The notes: generated by a model not told the origin, from the sequence alone. Shown: positions 14,012 to 21,114, counted from the stretch's first letter. The stretch: 64,000 nt of DNA from an uncultured Veillonellaceae bacterium (GCA_963805085.1 CAWDTA010000002.1:128001-192000); one strand, 5' to 3'. Translations and numbers: made by a program.

Positions 14012-15295
14012 TTAGAAGTTGAATTCAAGACGACCGAATACTTTTTTAACATCATTATCAGTATCAATATCTTTACCATCAAAGTAAACCACTTTAGCTA
14101 AGATGTTTTTGTCAAGGATATAGTCAACGCCAACTTCTGTACCTTTTTCGCCAAAGCCAACACCATCATAAGTAGGAGAAATAGAAGCCAATTGACCGAT
14201 TTGACGATATGCTACCCATGCGCCAAATGAACCAGGATCGCTTAATTTTGCACCTTTATAAGTCATTTGTGCGCTGTATGAATTTTCTTCATCGCTATCA
14301 AGACCCAAATCACTTGCATTTAAGCTAGACCCTGCATATAAGCCACCTAATTTAAGAGTATTATTGAATTTGTAGTCAAAACCTGCAGTCCAGATACCAT
14401 TATTATCATCGGATAAGTAATTGTTAGTAAGATTATGATAACCAGCAGCTAATGCAAATTTATTTGTATCATAGCCAAATTGAATTGCTTGATAATCAGT
14501 TGCTCCTGTTTTACCTTCTAATGAAGTCTTATTATGAGAAACAATTGAATAATCATCTTCAGCTACACGACCAGCCGTTAATGTTGTTTTTAAAGCTTTA
14601 CCAAATTGGAATTCAGCACCGCTTACTTGAGTATCAATGATTAAACCACCATCGGATAAATTACCACTATCGAATGCAGGGAATTTACCTACTTTTACAT
14701 CTGTACCAAATAAAGGACCTTGTGCATATGCTTGGTCAATTGTTGTTTTTCTGTCTGTGTCAGAATCTCCAGTATTATCATTGTTAAGATCTGCTTTAGA
14801 ATTTAAACGTCCTACTACTTTCCAGTTATCGTTTACTGCAGCATCTACATATAAACGAAGTAATCCAGTAGTAGCATTGCCATCCTCTTTAGTATCTTGT
14901 GTATAATGTTTAGTATCTAAACGTAAATACCCTGAGATTTTCACATTGTCAGTTTTCTTTTCAAGAGCGGCAACGCGAACACCTAAGTTGTTTAATTCAT
15001 CTGCATATTCTGCGGATAATTTGTCGATTGTTGCTTTGTCAGCAGCGCTAACGTTTTCTTTAGTCATAGCTTTTGCTACCATTTGAGCCATTTCATAACG
15101 AGTAATTTTTGCATCGCCACGGAATGTGTTGTCGCCATAACCTTCGATTACGCCTTCGTGTGCTAATTTAGCTACAGCGTCAAAAGACCAATGGTCAGTT
15201 GGAACGTCGCTAAATGGATTTGCAGCAGCAAATGTTGTGCTAGCTACACCGATTACTAGTGCTGAAGTGATTGCAGCAGCAAGTGTTTTTTTCAT
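14012..15295 (-). CDS. ompM: OmpM-like SLH-domain porin (outer membrane-peptidoglycan tether)
   Basis: Signal peptide, SLH (FSDVP..HW, GY.D..F.G...ITRYEMA), coiled stalk (LGVRVAALEKK), beta-barrel ending in F. Confidence 0.9.
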   Translation of the reverse strand: MKKTLAAAITSALVIGVASTTFAAANPFSDVPTDHWSFDAVAKLAHEGVIEGYGDNTFRGDAKITRYEMAQMVAKAMTKENVSAADKATIDKLSAEYADELNNLGVRVAALEKKTDNVKISGYLRLDTKHYTQDTKEDGNATTGLLRLYVDAAVNDNWKVVGRLNSKADLNNDNTGDSDTDRKTTIDQAYAQGPLFGTDVKVGKFPAFDSGNLSDGGLIIDTQVSGAEFQFGKALKTTLTAGRVAEDDYSIVSHNKTSLEGKTGATDYQAIQFGYDTNKFALAAGYHNLTNNYLSDDNNGIWTAGFDYKFNNTLKLGGLYAGSSLNASDLGLDSDEENSYSAQMTYKGAKLSDPGSFGAWVAYRQIGQLASISPTYDGVGFGEKGTEVGVDYILDKNILAKVVYFDGKDIDTDNDVKKVFGRLEFNF

Positions 15296-15363
15296 GATAA
15301 AAATCCCCCTTAAAATAAATATATTTTTTTGTGAGCCTTTACTTTAAGGTGAGAACGAATTTT

Positions 15364-15383
15364 AGAGTATCCACGTTTCCTCT
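15364..15383 (-). promoter_or_regulatory. Conserved ompM leader stem-loop, copy 1
   Basis: mRNA AGAG-GAAACGUGGAUA-CUCU, about 70 nt upstream of ATG; same motif at 17020 and 19037. Confidence 0.6.
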
Positions 15384-15486
15384 TCAACTTTTCCCGCCTA
15401 TTTAGTTCCAGCTCTATATAAGATATACTTTTTGGTAAAGTATATACTCATATCACGCTTAAAAATAATAAAGATTTAACGAAAAC

Positions 15487-15515
15487 TTAATAAATAGTTA
15501 ACAACTATTTATTAA
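15487..15515. promoter_or_regulatory. Perfect 13-bp AT-rich palindrome just downstream of the ompM promoter (candidate operator)
   Basis: TTAATAAATAGTT-aac-AACTATTTATTAA. Confidence 0.5.
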
Positions 15516-15530
15516 TTCCTCACTGATATG

Positions 15531-15559
15531 ATAATACCACTTTCTCTCATGGAAAACAA
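15531..15559 (-). promoter_or_regulatory. Sigma-A-like promoter of ompM (14012..15295)
   Basis: TTGTTT-N17-TATTAT with an extended -10 TG. Confidence 0.5.
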
Positions 15560-15589
15560 TACCTAAATTTAAATTAAATTTTTCAAAAT

Positions 15590-15622
15590 AAAAGACCTTC
15601 TGTTTTCACAGAAGGTCTTTTT
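15590..15622 (-). terminator. Intrinsic terminator after ompM (15636..16943)
   Basis: AAAAGACCTTCTGT / ACAGAAGGTCTTTT hairpin. Confidence 0.8.
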
Positions 15623-15635
15623 ACTAAGTTTTAGC

Positions 15636-16943
15636 TTAGAAACTGAATTGAAGACGTCCGAAGACTTTTTCAACATCGTTGCCGCCAGAGATTTTTTCGC
15701 CTTTGAAATAATCAACATATGCCATAATATTTTTATCAAGCATATATTGAGTACCAACTTGGAAACCTTTTTCGCCATAAGCAGCATCATCATAAGTTGG
15801 ATGTAAAGTTGCAAGTTTACCGATTTGACGGTAACCAGCCCATATACCAAATGAACCTGGAGCACTTTGTTTAACACCTTTATAAGTCAATTGTGCTGTA
15901 TAAGAATTTTCTTCATCTGAGCTTGCATCGCTAGCAATAGCAGTAGATGCATCAGCACTAGAGCCAGCGTATGCACCACCTAAAGTAAGATTTTTACTAA
16001 GCTTATAGTCAAAACCCACATTCCAGATGTTATTCGCATCATCAGTACCAAAAGCATCACTATTGCCTAAATGGAAATAGCCTGCATTAAGTTTTAGTTT
16101 ATTGCTTGCTTTATAATCAAATTGAATTGCATCATAATCAGTAGTGCCATATGAAATAGGAGTGGTAAATTTAGCAGCAGTAGAAGTATAATCATAATCA
16201 CCTTGTGCAATACGAGCAGTAGTTACTGTTGTTTTTAATGCTTTAGTTTGCCAAGCAAATTCAGCACCTTCTACAGGATTATCTAAAAGCATACCGCCAG
16301 TTGTATAACCAGCATTATCAAAGCCACCAAATTTACCTAATTTTGCAGTAGCACCAAATAAAGGACCTTGTGCATAAGCCCAGTCAATTGTTGATTGTCT
16401 GTTGTTAGGAGCAGTAGTATCATCATTATCAAGATCTGCTTTATTATTAATACGAGCTTTTACTGCCCAGCTATCGTTTACTGCAGCATCCACAAATAAA
16501 CGAAGATTTGCAGTAGTAGTAGCAGGAGAGCTAGCACCTTTCTCAGTTGTTTTATTCGAGCCGTCTAAACGTAAATAACCTGAGAATTTTACGTTGTCAG
16601 TTTTCTTTTCAAGAGCAGCAACACGAACACCTAGGTTGTTAAGTTCAGAAGCATATTCTGCGGATAATTTGTCGATGGTTGCTTTGTCAGCAGCGCTAAC
16701 GTTTTCTTTAGCCATAGCTTTTGCTACCATTTGAGCCATTTCATAACGAGTGATTTTTGCATCGCCACGGAATGTGTTGTCGCCATAACCATCGATTACA
16801 CCTTCGTGTGCTAATTTAGCTACAGCGTCAAAAGACCAATGGTCAGTTGGAACGTCGCTAAATGGATTTGCAGCAGCAAATGTTGTGCTAGCTACACCGA
16901 TTACTAGTGCTGAAGTGATTGCAGCAGCAAGTGTTTTTTTCAT
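15636..16943 (-). CDS. ompM: OmpM-like SLH-domain porin
   Basis: Same architecture as 14012..15295; the N-terminal ~120 aa are almost identical. Confidence 0.9.
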   Translation of the reverse strand: MKKTLAAAITSALVIGVASTTFAAANPFSDVPTDHWSFDAVAKLAHEGVIDGYGDNTFRGDAKITRYEMAQMVAKAMAKENVSAADKATIDKLSAEYASELNNLGVRVAALEKKTDNVKFSGYLRLDGSNKTTEKGASSPATTTANLRLFVDAAVNDSWAVKARINNKADLDNDDTTAPNNRQSTIDWAYAQGPLFGATAKLGKFGGFDNAGYTTGGMLLDNPVEGAEFAWQTKALKTTVTTARIAQGDYDYTSTAAKFTTPISYGTTDYDAIQFDYKASNKLKLNAGYFHLGNSDAFGTDDANNIWNVGFDYKLSKNLTLGGAYAGSSADASTAIASDASSDEENSYTAQLTYKGVKQSAPGSFGIWAGYRQIGKLATLHPTYDDAAYGEKGFQVGTQYMLDKNIMAYVDYFKGEKISGGNDVEKVFGRLQFSF

Positions 16944-17019
16944 GAGAAAATCCCCCTTAAAATAAATATTTTTTGAGCTTAAACTTTTCGGGGAAGATAT
17001 TCAAATAAAAGTTAATTAC

Positions 17020-17039
17020 CGAGTTTCCATGTTTCCTCG
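17020..17039 (-). promoter_or_regulatory. Conserved ompM leader stem-loop, copy 2
   Basis: mRNA CGAG-GAAACAUGGAAA-CUCG, within a longer stem (GGAAGAUA / UAUCUUCC). Confidence 0.6.
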
Positions 17040-17065
17040 TAAACTACCTTTATCTTCCTGTCCTC

Positions 17066-17118
17066 CACAATTATGTAACGCTCTTGTACATGATTCTACA
17101 TGATGTTACATAATTGTG
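17066..17118. repeat. Perfect 14-bp inverted repeat in the ompM leader
   Basis: CACAATTATGTAAC ... GTTACATAATTGTG. Confidence 0.65.
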
Positions 17119-17270
17119 CAAGCAAATAACTGGAAGAATCATTATAATCTTGTTAATTTTCTGTTAATTTCTCATTAAATTTGAAAATAAATTAGAAAAA
17201 TCTTTTTATCATAAGTATAACTGATTTTCACACTTGGAATTTATAATTAATTTTTATAATTAAATTTAAT

Positions 17271-17681
17271 TTACTGTTTCTTTAAATATCGTTCAGCTAA
17301 AATAACTGCTACGTAATCATCAACTGGTACAGGTGGAACTCGCATAGTCGTTGGCAATAATCGCCAAAATCCGGTAGGTGGATTGGCTTGCCAATAACGA
17401 ATTTTTGCTGCATCGGTCGTACGATATTCATCGACCAGTTGTAAGGTAATATTTTTTTCAGCACTTACTGCTTCCAGCTGTTTTTTTGCTTTATCACTTG
17501 AGGTGCCATTCCCCATTACAATGGTACTTACTTGATACTCTTCACTTAGCGTTTTCACTGCAGGGATTAAGTCGATCGTATTGATTACTTTTTGGTATGA
17601 AACGCCACTCATTTTCCCCACTACGGCAATGCCACATTTTTCTCTTCCTGGATCAATGGCGATAATGGTTGTCTGCATCAT
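17271..17681 (-). CDS. YqgF/RuvX-like RNase H-fold nuclease
   Basis: IAIDPGREKCG, GNGT, VDEY.TT, VDDYVAV motifs. Confidence 0.8.
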   Translation of the reverse strand: MMQTTIIAIDPGREKCGIAVVGKMSGVSYQKVINTIDLIPAVKTLSEEYQVSTIVMGNGTSSDKAKKQLEAVSAEKNITLQLVDEYRTTDAAKIRYWQANPPTGFWRLLPTTMRVPPVPVDDYVAVILAERYLKKQ

Positions 17682-17720
17682 AGCTCACCTTCATCATTTT
17701 ATGTATATAGCTCTTTATAC

Positions 17721-17749
17721 AATGTAAACATATCTTTAGGGAATGTCAA
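17721..17749 (-). promoter_or_regulatory. Sigma-A promoter of the YqgF-like gene
   Basis: TTGACA-N17-TACATT. Confidence 0.6.
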
Positions 17750-17750
17750 C

Positions 17751-17780
17751 AAAAACCCCCACTAAAATTAGTGGGGGCTT
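17751..17780 (-). terminator. Intrinsic terminator after the third ompM
   Basis: CCCCCACTAA / TTAGTGGGGG hairpin with an A-run on the plus strand (U-tract on the minus strand). Confidence 0.8.
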
Positions 17781-17818
17781 GGTTCAAGAATGATTGACTC
17801 TGAATCTTAAATTTTAAT

Positions 17819-18943
17819 TTAGAATTTTACGTTTAAAGTAGCTGCAGTACGATTTTGTTGTTTATCGCCAGCTTGGTTTTTGAAATCTTGGTATTGAAGA
17901 GTTAATGCTGTATTTTCAGCAACATCTTTTGTATATTTGTATTCCATACCTTTGAAACCTTCATTTAAGAAAGATACATCATTGACTCCAGTAAGACCAG
18001 AGTAGCTTGTGAATGCACCAGCTTCAACATCTTTATAAGTTGCAGATAAACCAAGTTTATTGGATTTTACGCCGTAAGCAATCGCTTTGGCACCAGAATT
18101 GTTTTCTTTGTTATATTCTGCATTTACACTGATATCTTTTGTTAAGCCAACAGAAGTATTTACACCGTAGAATTCTTTATCATTGCCTGTTGTTACATCA
18201 GCTTTCATATAGTTTAAATTGAAAATACCAGCTTGTAGCTCAGCACCGTATAAACGTTCTTTTGCACTAACTTGGTTACCAGCGAATAATTTTACGCTGC
18301 CAATGTTAGATTCAATACCATTGATCGTGTCATCAATGATCATACCAGTACCTACTTTTAAGTCTTGACGACCAATTGCGTTTTCTGCACCAAATGCATT
18401 AAAACCTACATTTGCAGTGTCTAATTTAATACCAGTAGATTCTCCGTCATAAGCGATATCACCACTAGATAAACGAGTGTTGAATGTTAAATCTTGATTG
18501 ATTTTACCAGTAACACCAATACGTGCTCTAAAATCAGTATTATCACTGCCGTTATCAGTAGCACCATAACGAAGACGTGCATCACCAGTAATTTTTGCGC
18601 GTTCTTGTTCAGCTTTTACTTCATCAACTGCGATACCCATGTCTTTTAATTCGCTAGAAAATTCTCTTGCTAATTTTTCTACTGCTAATTTTTGTTCGCC
18701 ATTTAAGTCTTTGTTCATTGCTTTTGCTACGATTTGAGCCATTTCATAACGAGTGATCGTTTTGTCACCTTTGAAAGTGCCATCGCCGTAACCATCAACG
18801 ATACCGTCTTGTGCAAGTACGTTTACTGCATCATATGCCCAATGACCTTTTTGCACATCAGCGAATGGATTTGCAAATACAGGAACTGCAACTGCTAATG
18901 TTAACGCTGTTGTAATCGCTACTTTTAATAAATTCTTTTTCAT
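17819..18943 (-). CDS. ompM: Divergent OmpM-like SLH-domain porin
   Basis: Signal peptide, SLH (FADV..GHWA, GYGDGTFKG...ITRYEMA), shorter beta-barrel ending in F. Confidence 0.85.
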   Translation of the reverse strand: MKKNLLKVAITTALTLAVAVPVFANPFADVQKGHWAYDAVNVLAQDGIVDGYGDGTFKGDKTITRYEMAQIVAKAMNKDLNGEQKLAVEKLAREFSSELKDMGIAVDEVKAEQERAKITGDARLRYGATDNGSDNTDFRARIGVTGKINQDLTFNTRLSSGDIAYDGESTGIKLDTANVGFNAFGAENAIGRQDLKVGTGMIIDDTINGIESNIGSVKLFAGNQVSAKERLYGAELQAGIFNLNYMKADVTTGNDKEFYGVNTSVGLTKDISVNAEYNKENNSGAKAIAYGVKSNKLGLSATYKDVEAGAFTSYSGLTGVNDVSFLNEGFKGMEYKYTKDVAENTALTLQYQDFKNQAGDKQQNRTAATLNVKF

Positions 18944-19036
18944 TTTGTGGAAATCCCCCTTGAATAATTTTTATATTTTTAGCTTGGCCTAATGCCAACA
19001 TACAAGGGTGGACATTTGATTTTCGCTAGCTTTCAC

Positions 19037-19056
19037 TGAGTATCCACGTTTCCTCA
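19037..19056 (-). promoter_or_regulatory. Conserved ompM leader stem-loop, copy 3
   Basis: mRNA UGAG-GAAACGUGGAUA-CUCA. Confidence 0.6.
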
Positions 19057-19242
19057 AGCAATCGCTACAATTATCTTATGTTTACCACTTGTTGTCCCTA
19101 CAGCTTTTTGTAGGTATGTACTAAAAATTTCAAGGTAGGTTTTCATTATGTTGGAGATATGTGGGAACCATATGTGGGAGACGAACGACCAGTCAGTCAT
19201 TCATTCGGAAGCGAACAATAAAATTGTTTCATTTGCTTCATG

Positions 19243-19665
19243 TTTACATAATTCTATAAACATTTTCTTTTTCCTGCTTTTAAATTCGTGTAATTTTTTC
19301 CATTGATCCTTGGATAACTAAAAGCAAATCATTATAAAATTAATTTTTAAGCATTGGTTTTATATTTACATAATTCTATAAAACTTGTCTTTTTCCTGCC
19401 GGCAAACTTGTGTAATGTTTTCCATCTAGATTTAAACATCCATCGGTCAATCATTGTAAAATGATTTCTTTAAGAATTCATTTTACGTTTACATAATTCT
19501 ATAAACATTTTCTTTTTCCTGCTTGTATATCTGTGTAATATTTTCCATAAACCACTGATTACCTAAGGATTAAGTATTTAAAACCAACTTTTAAGCATTA
19601 ATTTTATATTTACATAATTCTATATTTACGACGATTCTCCTTCTTTAAGTTCATGGTAATATACG
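19243..19665 (-). repeat. Four tandem ~122-bp units, each carrying a sigma-H-like promoter
   Basis: TTTACATAATTCTATA at 19243, 19365, 19488 and 19609; each unit has minus-strand AGGA-N17-GAAT. Confidence 0.85.
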
Positions 19666-19781: not shown

Positions 19782-19831
19782 TGTTCAATAGAAAAGACGA
19801 GGAGCATTCTCCTCGTCTTTTCTATTGAACA
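19782..19831 (-). terminator. Perfect 23-bp stem terminator overlapping the DUF3084 stop codon
   Basis: TGTTCAATAGAAAAGACGAGGAG-catt-CTCCTCGTCTTTTCTATTGAACA. Confidence 0.7.
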
Positions 19832-20997
19832 TTCTTTATTTTCACATTAAGTCTGAGCGGCCCCACGGCATTTGTATCGGCCCCCGCTACAGCGGTAAGT
19901 TCCACTTTTCCATCTGCCGCTTCCAAAGCATTTACGATATCATAGAATTGTGAGCCACTCATTACGCCTATTGTCCCTTGAAGTGGATCGGGAATCATGC
20001 CTTTATTCACTGCAGTTGCATTTACTTTTTTAAGAAACTCAAGGACAATTTTCTCGGCATCTTTTTCTTTTATACTGACAGTCATAATTTCTTTATAAAC
20101 AATCTGGTTTTCTTTATAAACTTGTTTATTTGGATAGAGTTCAAGATTGACTCGAACTGGTTCTCCATAAACGATATTGGCCGCCGCAACGACCCGAACA
20201 ATCATTTCTTGGTTACTCTGGTTAATTTGTTGAACTACTTGATCAAATGCTTCTTTTGTGATCCATACTACATCTATATTCTCTTTTATACCAAGCCGCG
20301 ATAGAATCGTCTCATTTGCTGTATTTAAAATTCCAGTTACTTCTTCAATGTTTTTACTCTTATCTTCTACTGGATTGACGGTTCCAGTTACAATCACTTC
20401 ACCAGCACGATAGACGATATCGCCTTCTCGCACAAATTGAATCCCCTGATTCAATCTTTTTGTTAAAACATTCAGGCGCTCAATATCACTTTCGAGAACT
20501 TTTTGCTGCTCACTTAAACTAGCTACACGATCATCCAATTCTTTTTTAGTTTCTTCTAATGCATTGTTCTTGTCTTCCAATATACTTTTCTTGTTTTCTA
20601 ATTCTTGAATCTGCTCTTCTGATTTTTCACTAGCAATTCTGTAATCTTCTTTGGCTTTATCAAGTGCCGCAATTACTTCTTCACGTTCTGTATTTGCTTT
20701 AGCAAGATCAAACGTTACGGTTTGCAGATTATTTTCTGTTGCTTTGATTTGTTGGTTTAATTTTTCCATACCAAACAAGGCAACCCTAACATTTTTTGAG
20801 GTTAAAGCAAGAACGCCGAGCGTAGAGGAAGTGATGAGTATGCCTGTAATGATGGTAACAATAATAGATGTGTACTTTGGCCTTAGTCCAAAGATTGACA
20901 ACTTCTTTTTGCCAACCTTACTCCCTAGTTTATCGCCAATGTAAGCAATGGCTCCGCCCATAACAATTAATACTAGAATTAATACAACTCCATACAT
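19822..20997 (-). CDS. DUF3084 domain membrane coiled-coil protein
   Basis: GG.IAYIGD.LG.KVGKKKLS.FGLRPKYT signature, two TMs, long coiled coil; likely start MYGV at 20997. Confidence 0.85.
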   Translation of the reverse strand: MYGVVLILVLIVMGGAIAYIGDKLGSKVGKKKLSIFGLRPKYTSIIVTIITGILITSSTLGVLALTSKNVRVALFGMEKLNQQIKATENNLQTVTFDLAKANTEREEVIAALDKAKEDYRIASEKSEEQIQELENKKSILEDKNNALEETKKELDDRVASLSEQQKVLESDIERLNVLTKRLNQGIQFVREGDIVYRAGEVIVTGTVNPVEDKSKNIEEVTGILNTANETILSRLGIKENIDVVWITKEAFDQVVQQINQSNQEMIVRVVAAANIVYGEPVRVNLELYPNKQVYKENQIVYKEIMTVSIKEKDAEKIVLEFLKKVNATAVNKGMIPDPLQGTIGVMSGSQFYDIVNALEAADGKVELTAVAGADTNAVGPLRLNVKIKNVQ

Positions 20998-21114
20998 CGC
21001 TTGCTCTCCCTCCTCATAAAAATAGCCACAAAGTGTTATCATCGTACACAAAGGATAAAAACATCAATCCCCTTTGTCAACTTTATCCTCTTTGTGGCTC
21101 ATAACATATTTCAT

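Follow-up and report, generated by a model that had tools for sequence, protein, structure and literature searches.

A Yfr2-like RNA hairpin in the leaders of outer-membrane protein genes of diderm Bacillota and some Armatimonadota

The 5' stem-loop of Escherichia coli ompA and the 5' stabilisers of Firmicutes protect the 5' ends of mRNAs. In Proteobacteria, MicA and RybB are envelope-stress small RNAs (sRNAs) that jointly repress the mRNAs of outer-membrane proteins. The conserved cyanobacterial sRNA Yfr2 is described as a 12-nucleotide (nt) loop on a long stem with a bulge at position -4 (PMC2662882), and its loop as a GGAAACA repeat on that stem (PMC1242208, PMC2662882). The Yfr2 5' motif is reported to pair with Yfr1 and Yfr10, and Yfr1 to target two porin mRNAs in Prochlorococcus; the same paper gives the role of the Yfr2 loop motif as not known (PMC6778093). 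Two members of the family in Synechocystis, Yfr2b and Yfr2c, are described as having start sites in common with downstream genes (PMC2662882). Weinberg et al. listed the Cyano-1 motif as a likely RNA that is not cis-regulatory (PMC2864571). Cyano-1 and Yfr2 appear to be the same RNA, judging from the Rfam consensus, the Prochlorococcus loci and the published descriptions. Here, a hairpin with this type of loop is described in the leaders of three ompM genes of an uncultured Veillonellaceae bacterium (GCA_963805085.1 CAWDTA010000002.1:128001-192000).

The whole stretch analysed, referred to as the window (G000:C2:128001-192000), is 64 kb long and belongs to a 4.2-Mb source assembly that is 83% complete. 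The element ahead of its ompM genes is a long covarying RNA hairpin, most probably within the gene-strand transcript, in which the sequence of the stem is free while pairing is kept. The genes, the hairpins and the Shine-Dalgarno (SD) cores are placed as follows.

14012..15295, minus strand: ompM-A, 427 amino acids (aa), SLH domain plus barrel; open reading frame (ORF) call; Pfam SLH E 3e-14
15305..15309, minus strand: SD core GGGGG of ompM-A
15365..15382, minus strand: hairpin core, copy A; stem GAG/CUC closing the 12-nt loop GAAACGUGGAUA
15333..15414, minus strand: extended hairpin, copy A; several helices with the conserved loop as the tip; unconstrained minimum free energy (MFE) -22.7 kcal/mol
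15636..16943, minus strand: ompM-B, 435 aa; ORF call; Pfam SLH E 5e-14
16952-16956, minus strand: SD core of ompM-B
17021..17038, minus strand: hairpin core, copy B; loop GAAACAUGGAAA
16988..17070, minus strand: extended hairpin, copy B; GGAGGA-type 5' arm and UCUUCC 3' arm; MFE -25.1 kcal/mol
17819..18943, minus strand: ompM-C, 374 aa; ORF call; Pfam SLH E 2e-13
18955-18959, minus strand: SD core of ompM-C
19038..19055, minus strand: hairpin core, copy C; loop GAAACGUGGAUA
19007..19086, minus strand: extended hairpin, copy C; MFE -19.2 kcal/mol

OmpM is recognised by an N-terminal SLH domain, a C-terminal beta-barrel and homology to the solved OmpM1, and the window proteins show all of these. 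Residues 1-428 of ompM-B align full-length with PDB 8BYS/8BYM (E 2.6e-37), and the 8BYS entry is called OmpM1 (PMC10628300). Pfam places the SLH domain at the N-terminus in all three window proteins and in the product encoded behind a fourth genomic copy of the element.

The pattern GAGGAAACRTGGAWACTC has exactly three matches in the window, all on the minus strand (15365-15382, 17021-17038 and 19038-19055), and none in 100 dinucleotide-preserving shuffles of it. The copies stand 69 nt (A), 77 nt (B) and 94 nt (C) ahead of ATG codons at 15295, 16943 and 18943, respectively. An earlier note, drawn from the sequence of the window, had described this motif ahead of all three ompM starts, with an outer pair that changes from A-U to C-G to U-A across copies A-C, a stem that can be extended in each copy and leaders that are otherwise dissimilar. 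Every part of that description is borne out: the outer pair differs as stated, each copy extends to a hairpin of approximately 80 nt with the folding energies given above, and the three leaders are little alike apart from the hairpin core and the SD region. Its wider proposal, a conserved covarying cis element of ompM leaders, also holds, on the strength of covariation in 96 copies, flank swaps and class-wide matches.

The whole-genome scan that the note had proposed gave 8 matches to the 14-nt core GGAAACRTGGAWAC at one mismatch or fewer. Four were exact, namely the three of the window and one at C2:618191-618204, and 4/4 precede genes for SLH outer-membrane proteins. The fourth copy lies approximately 50 nt ahead of the gene for a 471-aa SLH protein and has the stem GGAAAAGcAAAG/CUUUcUUUUCC, in which the first closing pair is A-U instead of G-C. 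The four one-mismatch matches were rejected as chance occurrences; three are inside long open frames, and none has the motif at the tip of a hairpin.

To place the element among relatives, 72 ompM loci were gathered by protein alignment, independently of the motif. They come mostly from Selenomonadaceae, Phascolarctobacterium and Succiniclasticum, and the nearest named relative is Propionispira arboris (57% identity). A strict loop pattern is present in 28 of the 72 upstream regions, always 46-94 nt ahead of the start. Reading the other 44 by eye revealed 15 with the same element in which GGC or GGG replaces the second GGA; one locus (L154) has no upstream DNA, and nearer or farther variants of the element occur in seven loci (L146, L175, L186 and L144/L147/L151/L181). 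The consensus is a 12-nt loop, GAAAC-NN-GG-NN-A, closed by G/A-A-G with C-U-C/U. The hairpin is approximately 80 nt long, and its stem, broken by bulges, has a median of 24 base pairs across relatives.

The patterns used to collect copies fixed the loop bases and the two inner pairs and left the two outer pairs free, so the invariance of the loop bases and inner pairs is partly a matter of construction. The pair beside the invariant A-U is GC in 82, AU in 13 and CG in 1 of 96 copies in an ungapped alignment and is never broken; in a 41-sequence alignment the same pair is GC in 34, AU in 6 and CG in 1. The next pair outward is formed in 71/96 copies and takes five types (UA, AU, CG, UG, GC). 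When the purine and pyrimidine positions (R/Y) were left free in the class-wide search, the 150 matches listed comprised 124 G..C, 24 A..T, 1 A..C and 1 G..T. The closing pair thus covaries in the larger alignment, and the case for the element goes well beyond what the three copies of the earlier note could offer.

Beyond four pairs the register of the stem differs between copies because of the bulges, and alignment-free tests were therefore used; the support for the outer helices is that of these tests alone, with no column-wise covariation statistic. Copies folded with their own flanks reach -23.4 kcal/mol, against -16.4 kcal/mol with the 3' flank of another copy (Wilcoxon p 7e-11), and 28/39 copies beat 90% of their own flank-swap chimeras. 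When stretches of 84 nt were folded without constraint, the 12-nt loop came out as the tip in 85 of 93 distinct copies. G-U pairs make up 209 of the 1908 stem pairs in the 93 folds, and the sense fold is more stable than the antisense fold in 72/93 (p 8e-9). The flank-swap and sense/antisense tests speak for a structure in the gene-strand transcript rather than for a double-stranded DNA site.

The position of the hairpin within that transcript was predicted from promoter-like sequences. Across species, -10-like hexamers are most frequent 41-50 nt ahead of the initial G of the GGAAAC motif, with 32 in two 5-nt bins compared to about 5 per bin elsewhere, and 21 of the 32 are TG-extended. The start was predicted at the seventh base after a TGnTAnnnT box in the 46 leaders with such a box. 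In folds from this base, the loop is at the tip in 40/46, and the stem begins at nt 1-4 in 28 of these 40. The hairpin is likely to be 5'-terminal across the family, judging from these boxes, and is a candidate for that position in this window. The earlier note had taken the motif as part of the mRNA; with -10-like boxes 41-50 nt upstream of the loop in many species, the element is most probably inside the transcript and not upstream of the transcription start site (TSS). In the window itself, a consensus promoter scan found 27 sites compared to 24.1 in shuffles, which is no enrichment. The literature search found no TSS map for Negativicutes, and a search of public sequencing runs for the locus returned a best share of sampled words of 0.07, from contigs only, which is evidence neither way.

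These results also bear on the idea of a DNA site, in which the direct repeat GGAAAC-N2-GGNNAC would serve a transcription factor as an operator near the start of the transcribed region, with inverted flanks of no significance. Such an operator would fit a core that is indeed a direct repeat, its fixed orientation to the gene and the one promoter-like match that overlaps copy A. It is extremely improbable, however, given flanks that conserve complementarity (median 24 pairs) rather than sequence, a closing pair that covaries without exception, a second repeat that is poorly conserved and cross-species -10 boxes that stand upstream of the element. Moreover, 11% of the pairs are G-U, which would be A-C on the opposite strand, and it is the sense strand that gives the more stable fold in 72/93.

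The distribution of the element was examined by searches at the level of class, order and phylum with the pattern RAGGAAACNNGGNNACTY, for which the same pattern read backwards served as the control.

Negativicutes (own class): 122/151 genomes, ~366 matches; control 11 (own count)
Halanaerobiales (order of a metagenome-assembled genome, MAG): 45/61 genomes, 62 matches; control 0
Limnochordia (class of a MAG): 46/51 genomes, 82 matches; control 1
Armatimonadota (phylum of a MAG): 24/81 genomes, 26 matches; control 13
Monoderm Clostridia (class of a Lachnospiraceae MAG): 12/151 genomes, 12 matches; control 16

Each of the three diderm lineages of Bacillota has the element, as do some Armatimonadota. 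Monoderm Clostridia give no signal above chance, and their R/Y combinations are mixed as expected by chance.

The element is found specifically at genes that encode beta-barrel proteins of the outer membrane. Among Negativicutes, one locus from each of 30 genomes gave 26 OmpM proteins, 3 porin-like proteins without SLH and 1 TonB-dependent receptor. The 26 OmpM calls were made by SLH signature, and four were checked by Pfam. Two of the three porin-like proteins have Porin_4 above the cut-off, and the TonB-dependent receptor has both plug and barrel. Twelve Halanaerobiales loci comprise 10 SLH proteins (two checked by profile), 1 unclear case and 1 chance match without an ORF. In both groups the element lies 20-270 nt ahead of the outer-membrane protein gene. 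The Limnochordia hairpin has the loop at its tip in 10/10 loci, and 9 of the 10 are followed by an ORF of 80 aa or longer, which in most cases begins like a signal peptide; L316 has no ORF in the locus. Four of the nine ORFs have weak, sub-threshold barrel matches, and the element of L030 precedes an SLH protein. Among 16 Armatimonadota loci, the hairpin has the loop at its tip in 9, and 8 of those 9 precede SLH proteins. The earlier note had suggested an element that coordinates outer-membrane tethers. It does precede ompM genes, but it is not tether-specific, for it also precedes SLH-less porins and the TonB-dependent receptor.

The closing pairs occur in a second form, AAG/CUU, which stands ahead of all three SLH-less porin-like genes of the class sample (L223, L226 and L227, from G055, G029 and G116) and ahead of the barrel protein L294 (G195:C19). 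Genes with this form often adjoin an ompM gene with the GAG/CUC form. The AAG/CUU form is also found before SLH genes (L205, L206, L305), so the split is a tendency at most. A partner might distinguish the two forms.

A search of the region with Rfam 15 gave a sole notable match, that of copy B (17000-17074) to Cyano-1 (RF01701), at 32.1 bits against a gathering score of 41 (E 0.00074 for the leader alone, 0.026 for 12 kb). Over the whole genome, the Cyano-1 model found two places only, copy B with 32.1 bits and the fourth copy with 19.3 bits, both in leaders of SLH proteins. Copies A and C had no match to the model, and neither did any of 20 leaders from other organisms at E<=1 (0/20). Picocyanobacterial Yfr2 scores 52-69 bits on it. 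Rfam 15 holds no family for the element, and none reaches threshold. The statement of the earlier note that it recognised no named RNA family therefore stands at the level of Rfam thresholds, but it needs qualifying: copy B is a sub-threshold Cyano-1 match, and the loop is that known from Yfr2 as the 'GGAAACA repeat'.

The likeness to Yfr2 (Yfr2-5) extends to several features. The 12-nt apical loop GAAAC-NN-GG-NN-A is common to both, and the identical GAAACAAGGAAA occurs in 8/96 copies here. Both have three closing pairs of the form G-W-G / C-W-C and a long stem broken about four pairs below the loop; in the present element the register is lost after 3-4 pairs. Yfr2 is placed right after a strong promoter, as is predicted for the element. 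The Cyano-1 consensus core GUGGAAACAAGGAAACAC differs mainly by its middle closing pair, which is U-A there and A-U here. Yfr2 has a conserved single-stranded 5' motif (GUGAGGAG-like) that is complementary to Yfr1/Yfr10 and is not conserved in the ompM leaders. Only copy B has a look-alike, UGUGGAGGA, and the GGAG-like stretch of the other leaders is variable and stem-paired. Yfr2 is a free-standing sRNA gene at non-conserved loci, whereas the element has no terminator and is fused to an outer-membrane protein gene. The element shares the apical module of Yfr2, and membership of Yfr2 fails on score, on the 5' motif and on the free-standing gene.

A scan of a sequence collection with GWGGAAACAWGGAAACWC returned two groups. 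The first has a GUG..CAC form, in Prochlorococcus and Synechococcus, beside unrelated genes. The second has the GAG..CUC form before genes for SLH/barrel proteins, with records from Halanaerobiales, Limnochordia, Selenomonas, Lucifera, Abditibacteriaceae and Armatimonadota. At cyanobacterial loci for OprB-type porins, the loop was found in 0/30 (from the 14 of 41 genomes that have such genes). What is new is a Yfr2-like hairpin used in cis on mRNAs of outer-membrane proteins outside the cyanobacteria. The literature searched (Gierga et al. 2009, RNA Biology, and the supplements of the Weinberg motif papers excepted) held no description of the element outside cyanobacteria.

The shared architecture raises an alternative, that of a leader-derived sRNA. 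Processing or early termination would free the hairpin, and the product would work in trans in the manner of Yfr2, for example as a decoy for a loop-binding factor or in partnership with another sRNA. Yfr2b and Yfr2c of Synechocystis show sRNA and leader forms within one family (PMC2662882), and the hairpin here is predicted at the extreme 5' end. A leader-derived sRNA is nevertheless unlikely, since a scan of the window found no terminator-like site after the hairpins in its three leaders, a gene for an outer-membrane protein lies downstream in 30/30 class loci and the single-stranded 5' motif of Yfr2 is not kept.

The earlier note had named CsrA as a possible partner, and the resemblance behind this is real: CsrA/RsmA hairpins (RsmY, RsmZ, CsrB and target leaders) expose GGA in a hairpin loop, as the element does. 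One factor co-regulates many mRNAs in CsrA systems, and the abundant cyanobacterial sRNA that has this loop could be a sink for such a factor. The usual CsrA-binding loop has 5-6 nt, compared to 12 nt here, and the second GGA is not conserved. CsrA/RsmA would bind the loop GGA, and perhaps GGA in the SD region, and so repress or stabilise ompM mRNAs. The hairpin loop does contain one or two GGA motifs, the source genome encodes CsrA (G000:C2:1818720, 80 bits), and Voss et al. saw the same GGA/ANGGA resemblance in Yfr2 (PMC2662882). Co-occurrence, however, rules CsrA out as the general partner. Four families carry the element in 33/35 genomes (f17 19/21, f24 9/9, f28 3/3, f7 2/2), and CsrA (PF02599) is found in 0/21, 0/9, 0/3 and 0/2 of these genomes, respectively, or 0/35 in all; completeness is 94-100% for the genomes listed for f17, f24 and f7. 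In addition, the second GGA is replaced in 35/96 copies (GGA 61/96, GGC 29, GGG 3, GGU 3), and the first GGA is invariant, but its first G belongs to the closing pair. Cyanobacteria with the same loop are themselves reported to be without RsmA/RsmE/CsrA homologues (PMC2662882). A role for CsrA is therefore very unlikely, although there may be lineage-specific use of it in flagellated species.

RRM proteins were also rejected as the partner, since PF00076 is found in 0/22, 0/21, 0/9 and 0/3 genomes of the element-bearing families f12, f17, f24 and f28. Small single-domain RRM proteins of approximately 85-110 aa are encoded in 55/151 Negativicute genomes, including the source genome (G000:C5:628458-628664). 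These genes, unusual for Bacillota, are present in a family-wise all-or-none manner unrelated to the distribution of the hairpin.

Pairing of the loop within the same mRNA was considered as well. A search for a pseudoknot or long-range pairing with the leader or early coding region found the complement of a leader's own loop in 0/92 leaders. Duplex energies are no different between own loops (-7.6 kcal/mol) and swapped loops (-7.8 kcal/mol), and pairing of the loop inside the leader was rejected. In some Selenomonas-type leaders, inspection by eye suggested that the loop pairs with the U-rich spacer behind the SD sequence; such pairing is absent in leaders of Halanaerobiales, Limnochordia and Phascolarctobacterium, and was likewise rejected.

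The explanation that we hold to be somewhat probable is that the hairpin stabilises the 5' end and, in addition, offers its loop as a docking site to a trans-acting factor. The hairpin would start within the first few nt of the mRNA and would protect the very abundant mRNAs of outer-membrane proteins from 5'-end-dependent decay. A stabilising role is suggested by the predicted 5' position, the abundance of the proteins and the example of ompA and the Firmicute stabilisers. In the leaders of ompA, Bacillus aprE and ermC, a stable hairpin stands a few nt from the 5' end of an abundant mRNA, an arrangement that is predicted here. Like the messages described here, ompA encodes an outer-membrane protein; no sequence similarity is claimed. 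To our knowledge, such stabilisers work without any particular loop sequence, and their conservation does not reach past close relatives. Unlike them, the present element keeps its 12-nt loop across phyla while the stems drift, and the loop is therefore probably read by a sequence-specific partner.

A trans-acting factor, either a protein or an RNA but neither CsrA nor an RRM protein, would dock on the invariant loop and would let the cell tune all of its major outer-membrane protein mRNAs jointly. MicA, RybB and Yfr1 follow the same logic, a common handle on the mRNAs of major outer-membrane proteins for joint post-transcriptional control. Those are trans-acting sRNAs that pair near start codons; the present element is a hairpin in cis, located well ahead of the start and with no known RNA partner in trans.

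Opening of the stem may, in addition, mask the true SD sequence and so tie the integrity of the hairpin to translation, because the arms of many copies resemble CUCC on the 3' side and GGAG on the 5' side. The 5' arm is SD-like in 58/93 copies and the 3' arm anti-SD-like in 52/93; both hold in 40/93, and the reverse in 7/93. In a folding comparison made without a matched control, the predicted accessibility of the SD is 0.30 with the hairpin intact and falls to 0.16 without the 5' arm (30/39 leaders, p 2e-4). This hint of a translation switch, which comes from predicted folds, is held loosely. Taken further, the same arm polarity and the same drop in accessibility would fit a pure translational switch, in which the CUCC-like 3' arm is an anti-SD, the GGAG-like 5' arm is a decoy, and a factor or condition that opens the hairpin shuts off translation with no part for stabilisation. 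Many arms, however, have no SD or anti-SD likeness (for example L136, L193 and L133), and the polarity is perhaps due to leaders that are rich in purines. A pure switch is quite improbable.

Several findings weigh against the stabiliser with a docking loop. The element is not universal, as approximately 43/72 ompM loci carry it, and two Negativicute families have no matches (0/10 and 0/3 genomes) and have OmpM-like genes that lack it. Even in the source genome, only 4/11 SLH-domain ORFs (383-510 aa) have the element, which may mark only the highly expressed members of the SLH-barrel family. The seven SLH-plus-barrel paralogues without the hairpin are placed as follows.

C2:631903
C2:920682
C2:1181357
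C5:148463
C4:378340
C4:306421
C5:371936

The invariance of the loop is partly driven by the way copies were collected, and the seven variant loci (L146, L175, L186, L144/L147/L151/L181) exist beside it. A complement of the loop was found neither in the leaders nor as a second exact site in the genome, and no partner was found, with CsrA and RRM proteins failing the co-occurrence test. The 5'-terminal position is predicted from -10 boxes, and the promoters of the window are ambiguous: a 9-of-12 match at 15387-15359 overlaps copy A, and another such match at 19098-19070 would start within the stem of copy C. The SD-masking fold has no independent control to set beside it, and the SD is poorly accessible even when the hairpin is intact.

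The ompM region of the window has further features. A 136-aa RuvX/YqgF-like gene (17271-17681, minus strand; Pfam RuvX, 32 bits) lies between ompM-B and ompM-C and splits the ompM cluster. At 19783-19830, a perfect 20-pair hairpin with T-runs on both sides resembles a bidirectional terminator and divides the ompM region from the next gene (19822-21051, minus strand). The long spacer upstream of ompM-C holds three to four tandem units of approximately 122 nt (19213-19650) that are 72-89% alike. Their conserved 21-mer has no other occurrence in the genome, and the units may represent reiterated modules of a promoter or operator. Six copies of the 10-mer TTACATAATT are present in the window, compared to 0.85 expected by chance, and all are upstream of ompM genes, at the following sites.

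17069-17078, minus strand: TTACATAATT
17106-17115, plus strand: TTACATAATT
19244-19253, plus strand: TTACATAATT
19366-19375, plus strand: TTACATAATT
19489-19498, plus strand: TTACATAATT
19610-19619, plus strand: TTACATAATT

Two of these sites form an inverted pair around the best promoter candidate of ompM-B, and the other four fall one per unit of the tandem repeat upstream of ompM-C. TTACATAATT looks like an operator for a DNA-binding regulator of ompM promoters. At one of the other ompM loci, in a Selenomonas MAG (L134), a group II intron domain (RF02001, 139 bits) is found at 377-549, approximately 350 nt upstream of ompM.

In Terrabacteria, OmpM is considered the ancestral tether of the outer membrane, and losing it has been discussed as one way in which two-membraned cells could have become single-membraned. 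Nothing on the control of OmpM expression was found in those parts of the published literature that the search covered. The conserved leader element is a first handle on how the expression of OmpM and porins is controlled in diderm Bacillota. That OmpM, porins and a TonB-dependent receptor are all marked points to common post-transcriptional control of the supply of outer-membrane proteins, and such control would operate in bacteria that are without the sigma-E/sRNA system of Proteobacteria.

A broader reading, doubtful though conceivable, is that the GGAAAC-loop hairpin is an ancient module of diderm Terrabacteria, bound by a factor that couples the synthesis of beta-barrel proteins to the state of the envelope, and that it was freed as Yfr2 in cyanobacteria. 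The module would then act in cis on the mRNAs of OmpM, porins and TonB receptors in diderm Bacillota and Armatimonadota. Yfr2, together with Yfr1, the porin regulator that pairs with it, would run the same circuit in trans. Yfr2 would lure away the loop-binding factor as a decoy, and this would be the function missing since 2005.

The likeness to Yfr2 ties an enigmatic, universally conserved motif of a cyanobacterial sRNA to the biogenesis of the outer membrane, and it makes the role of the loop experimentally approachable. The motif is also a cheap marker for the genes of major outer-membrane proteins in uncultured diderm Bacillota and Armatimonadota.

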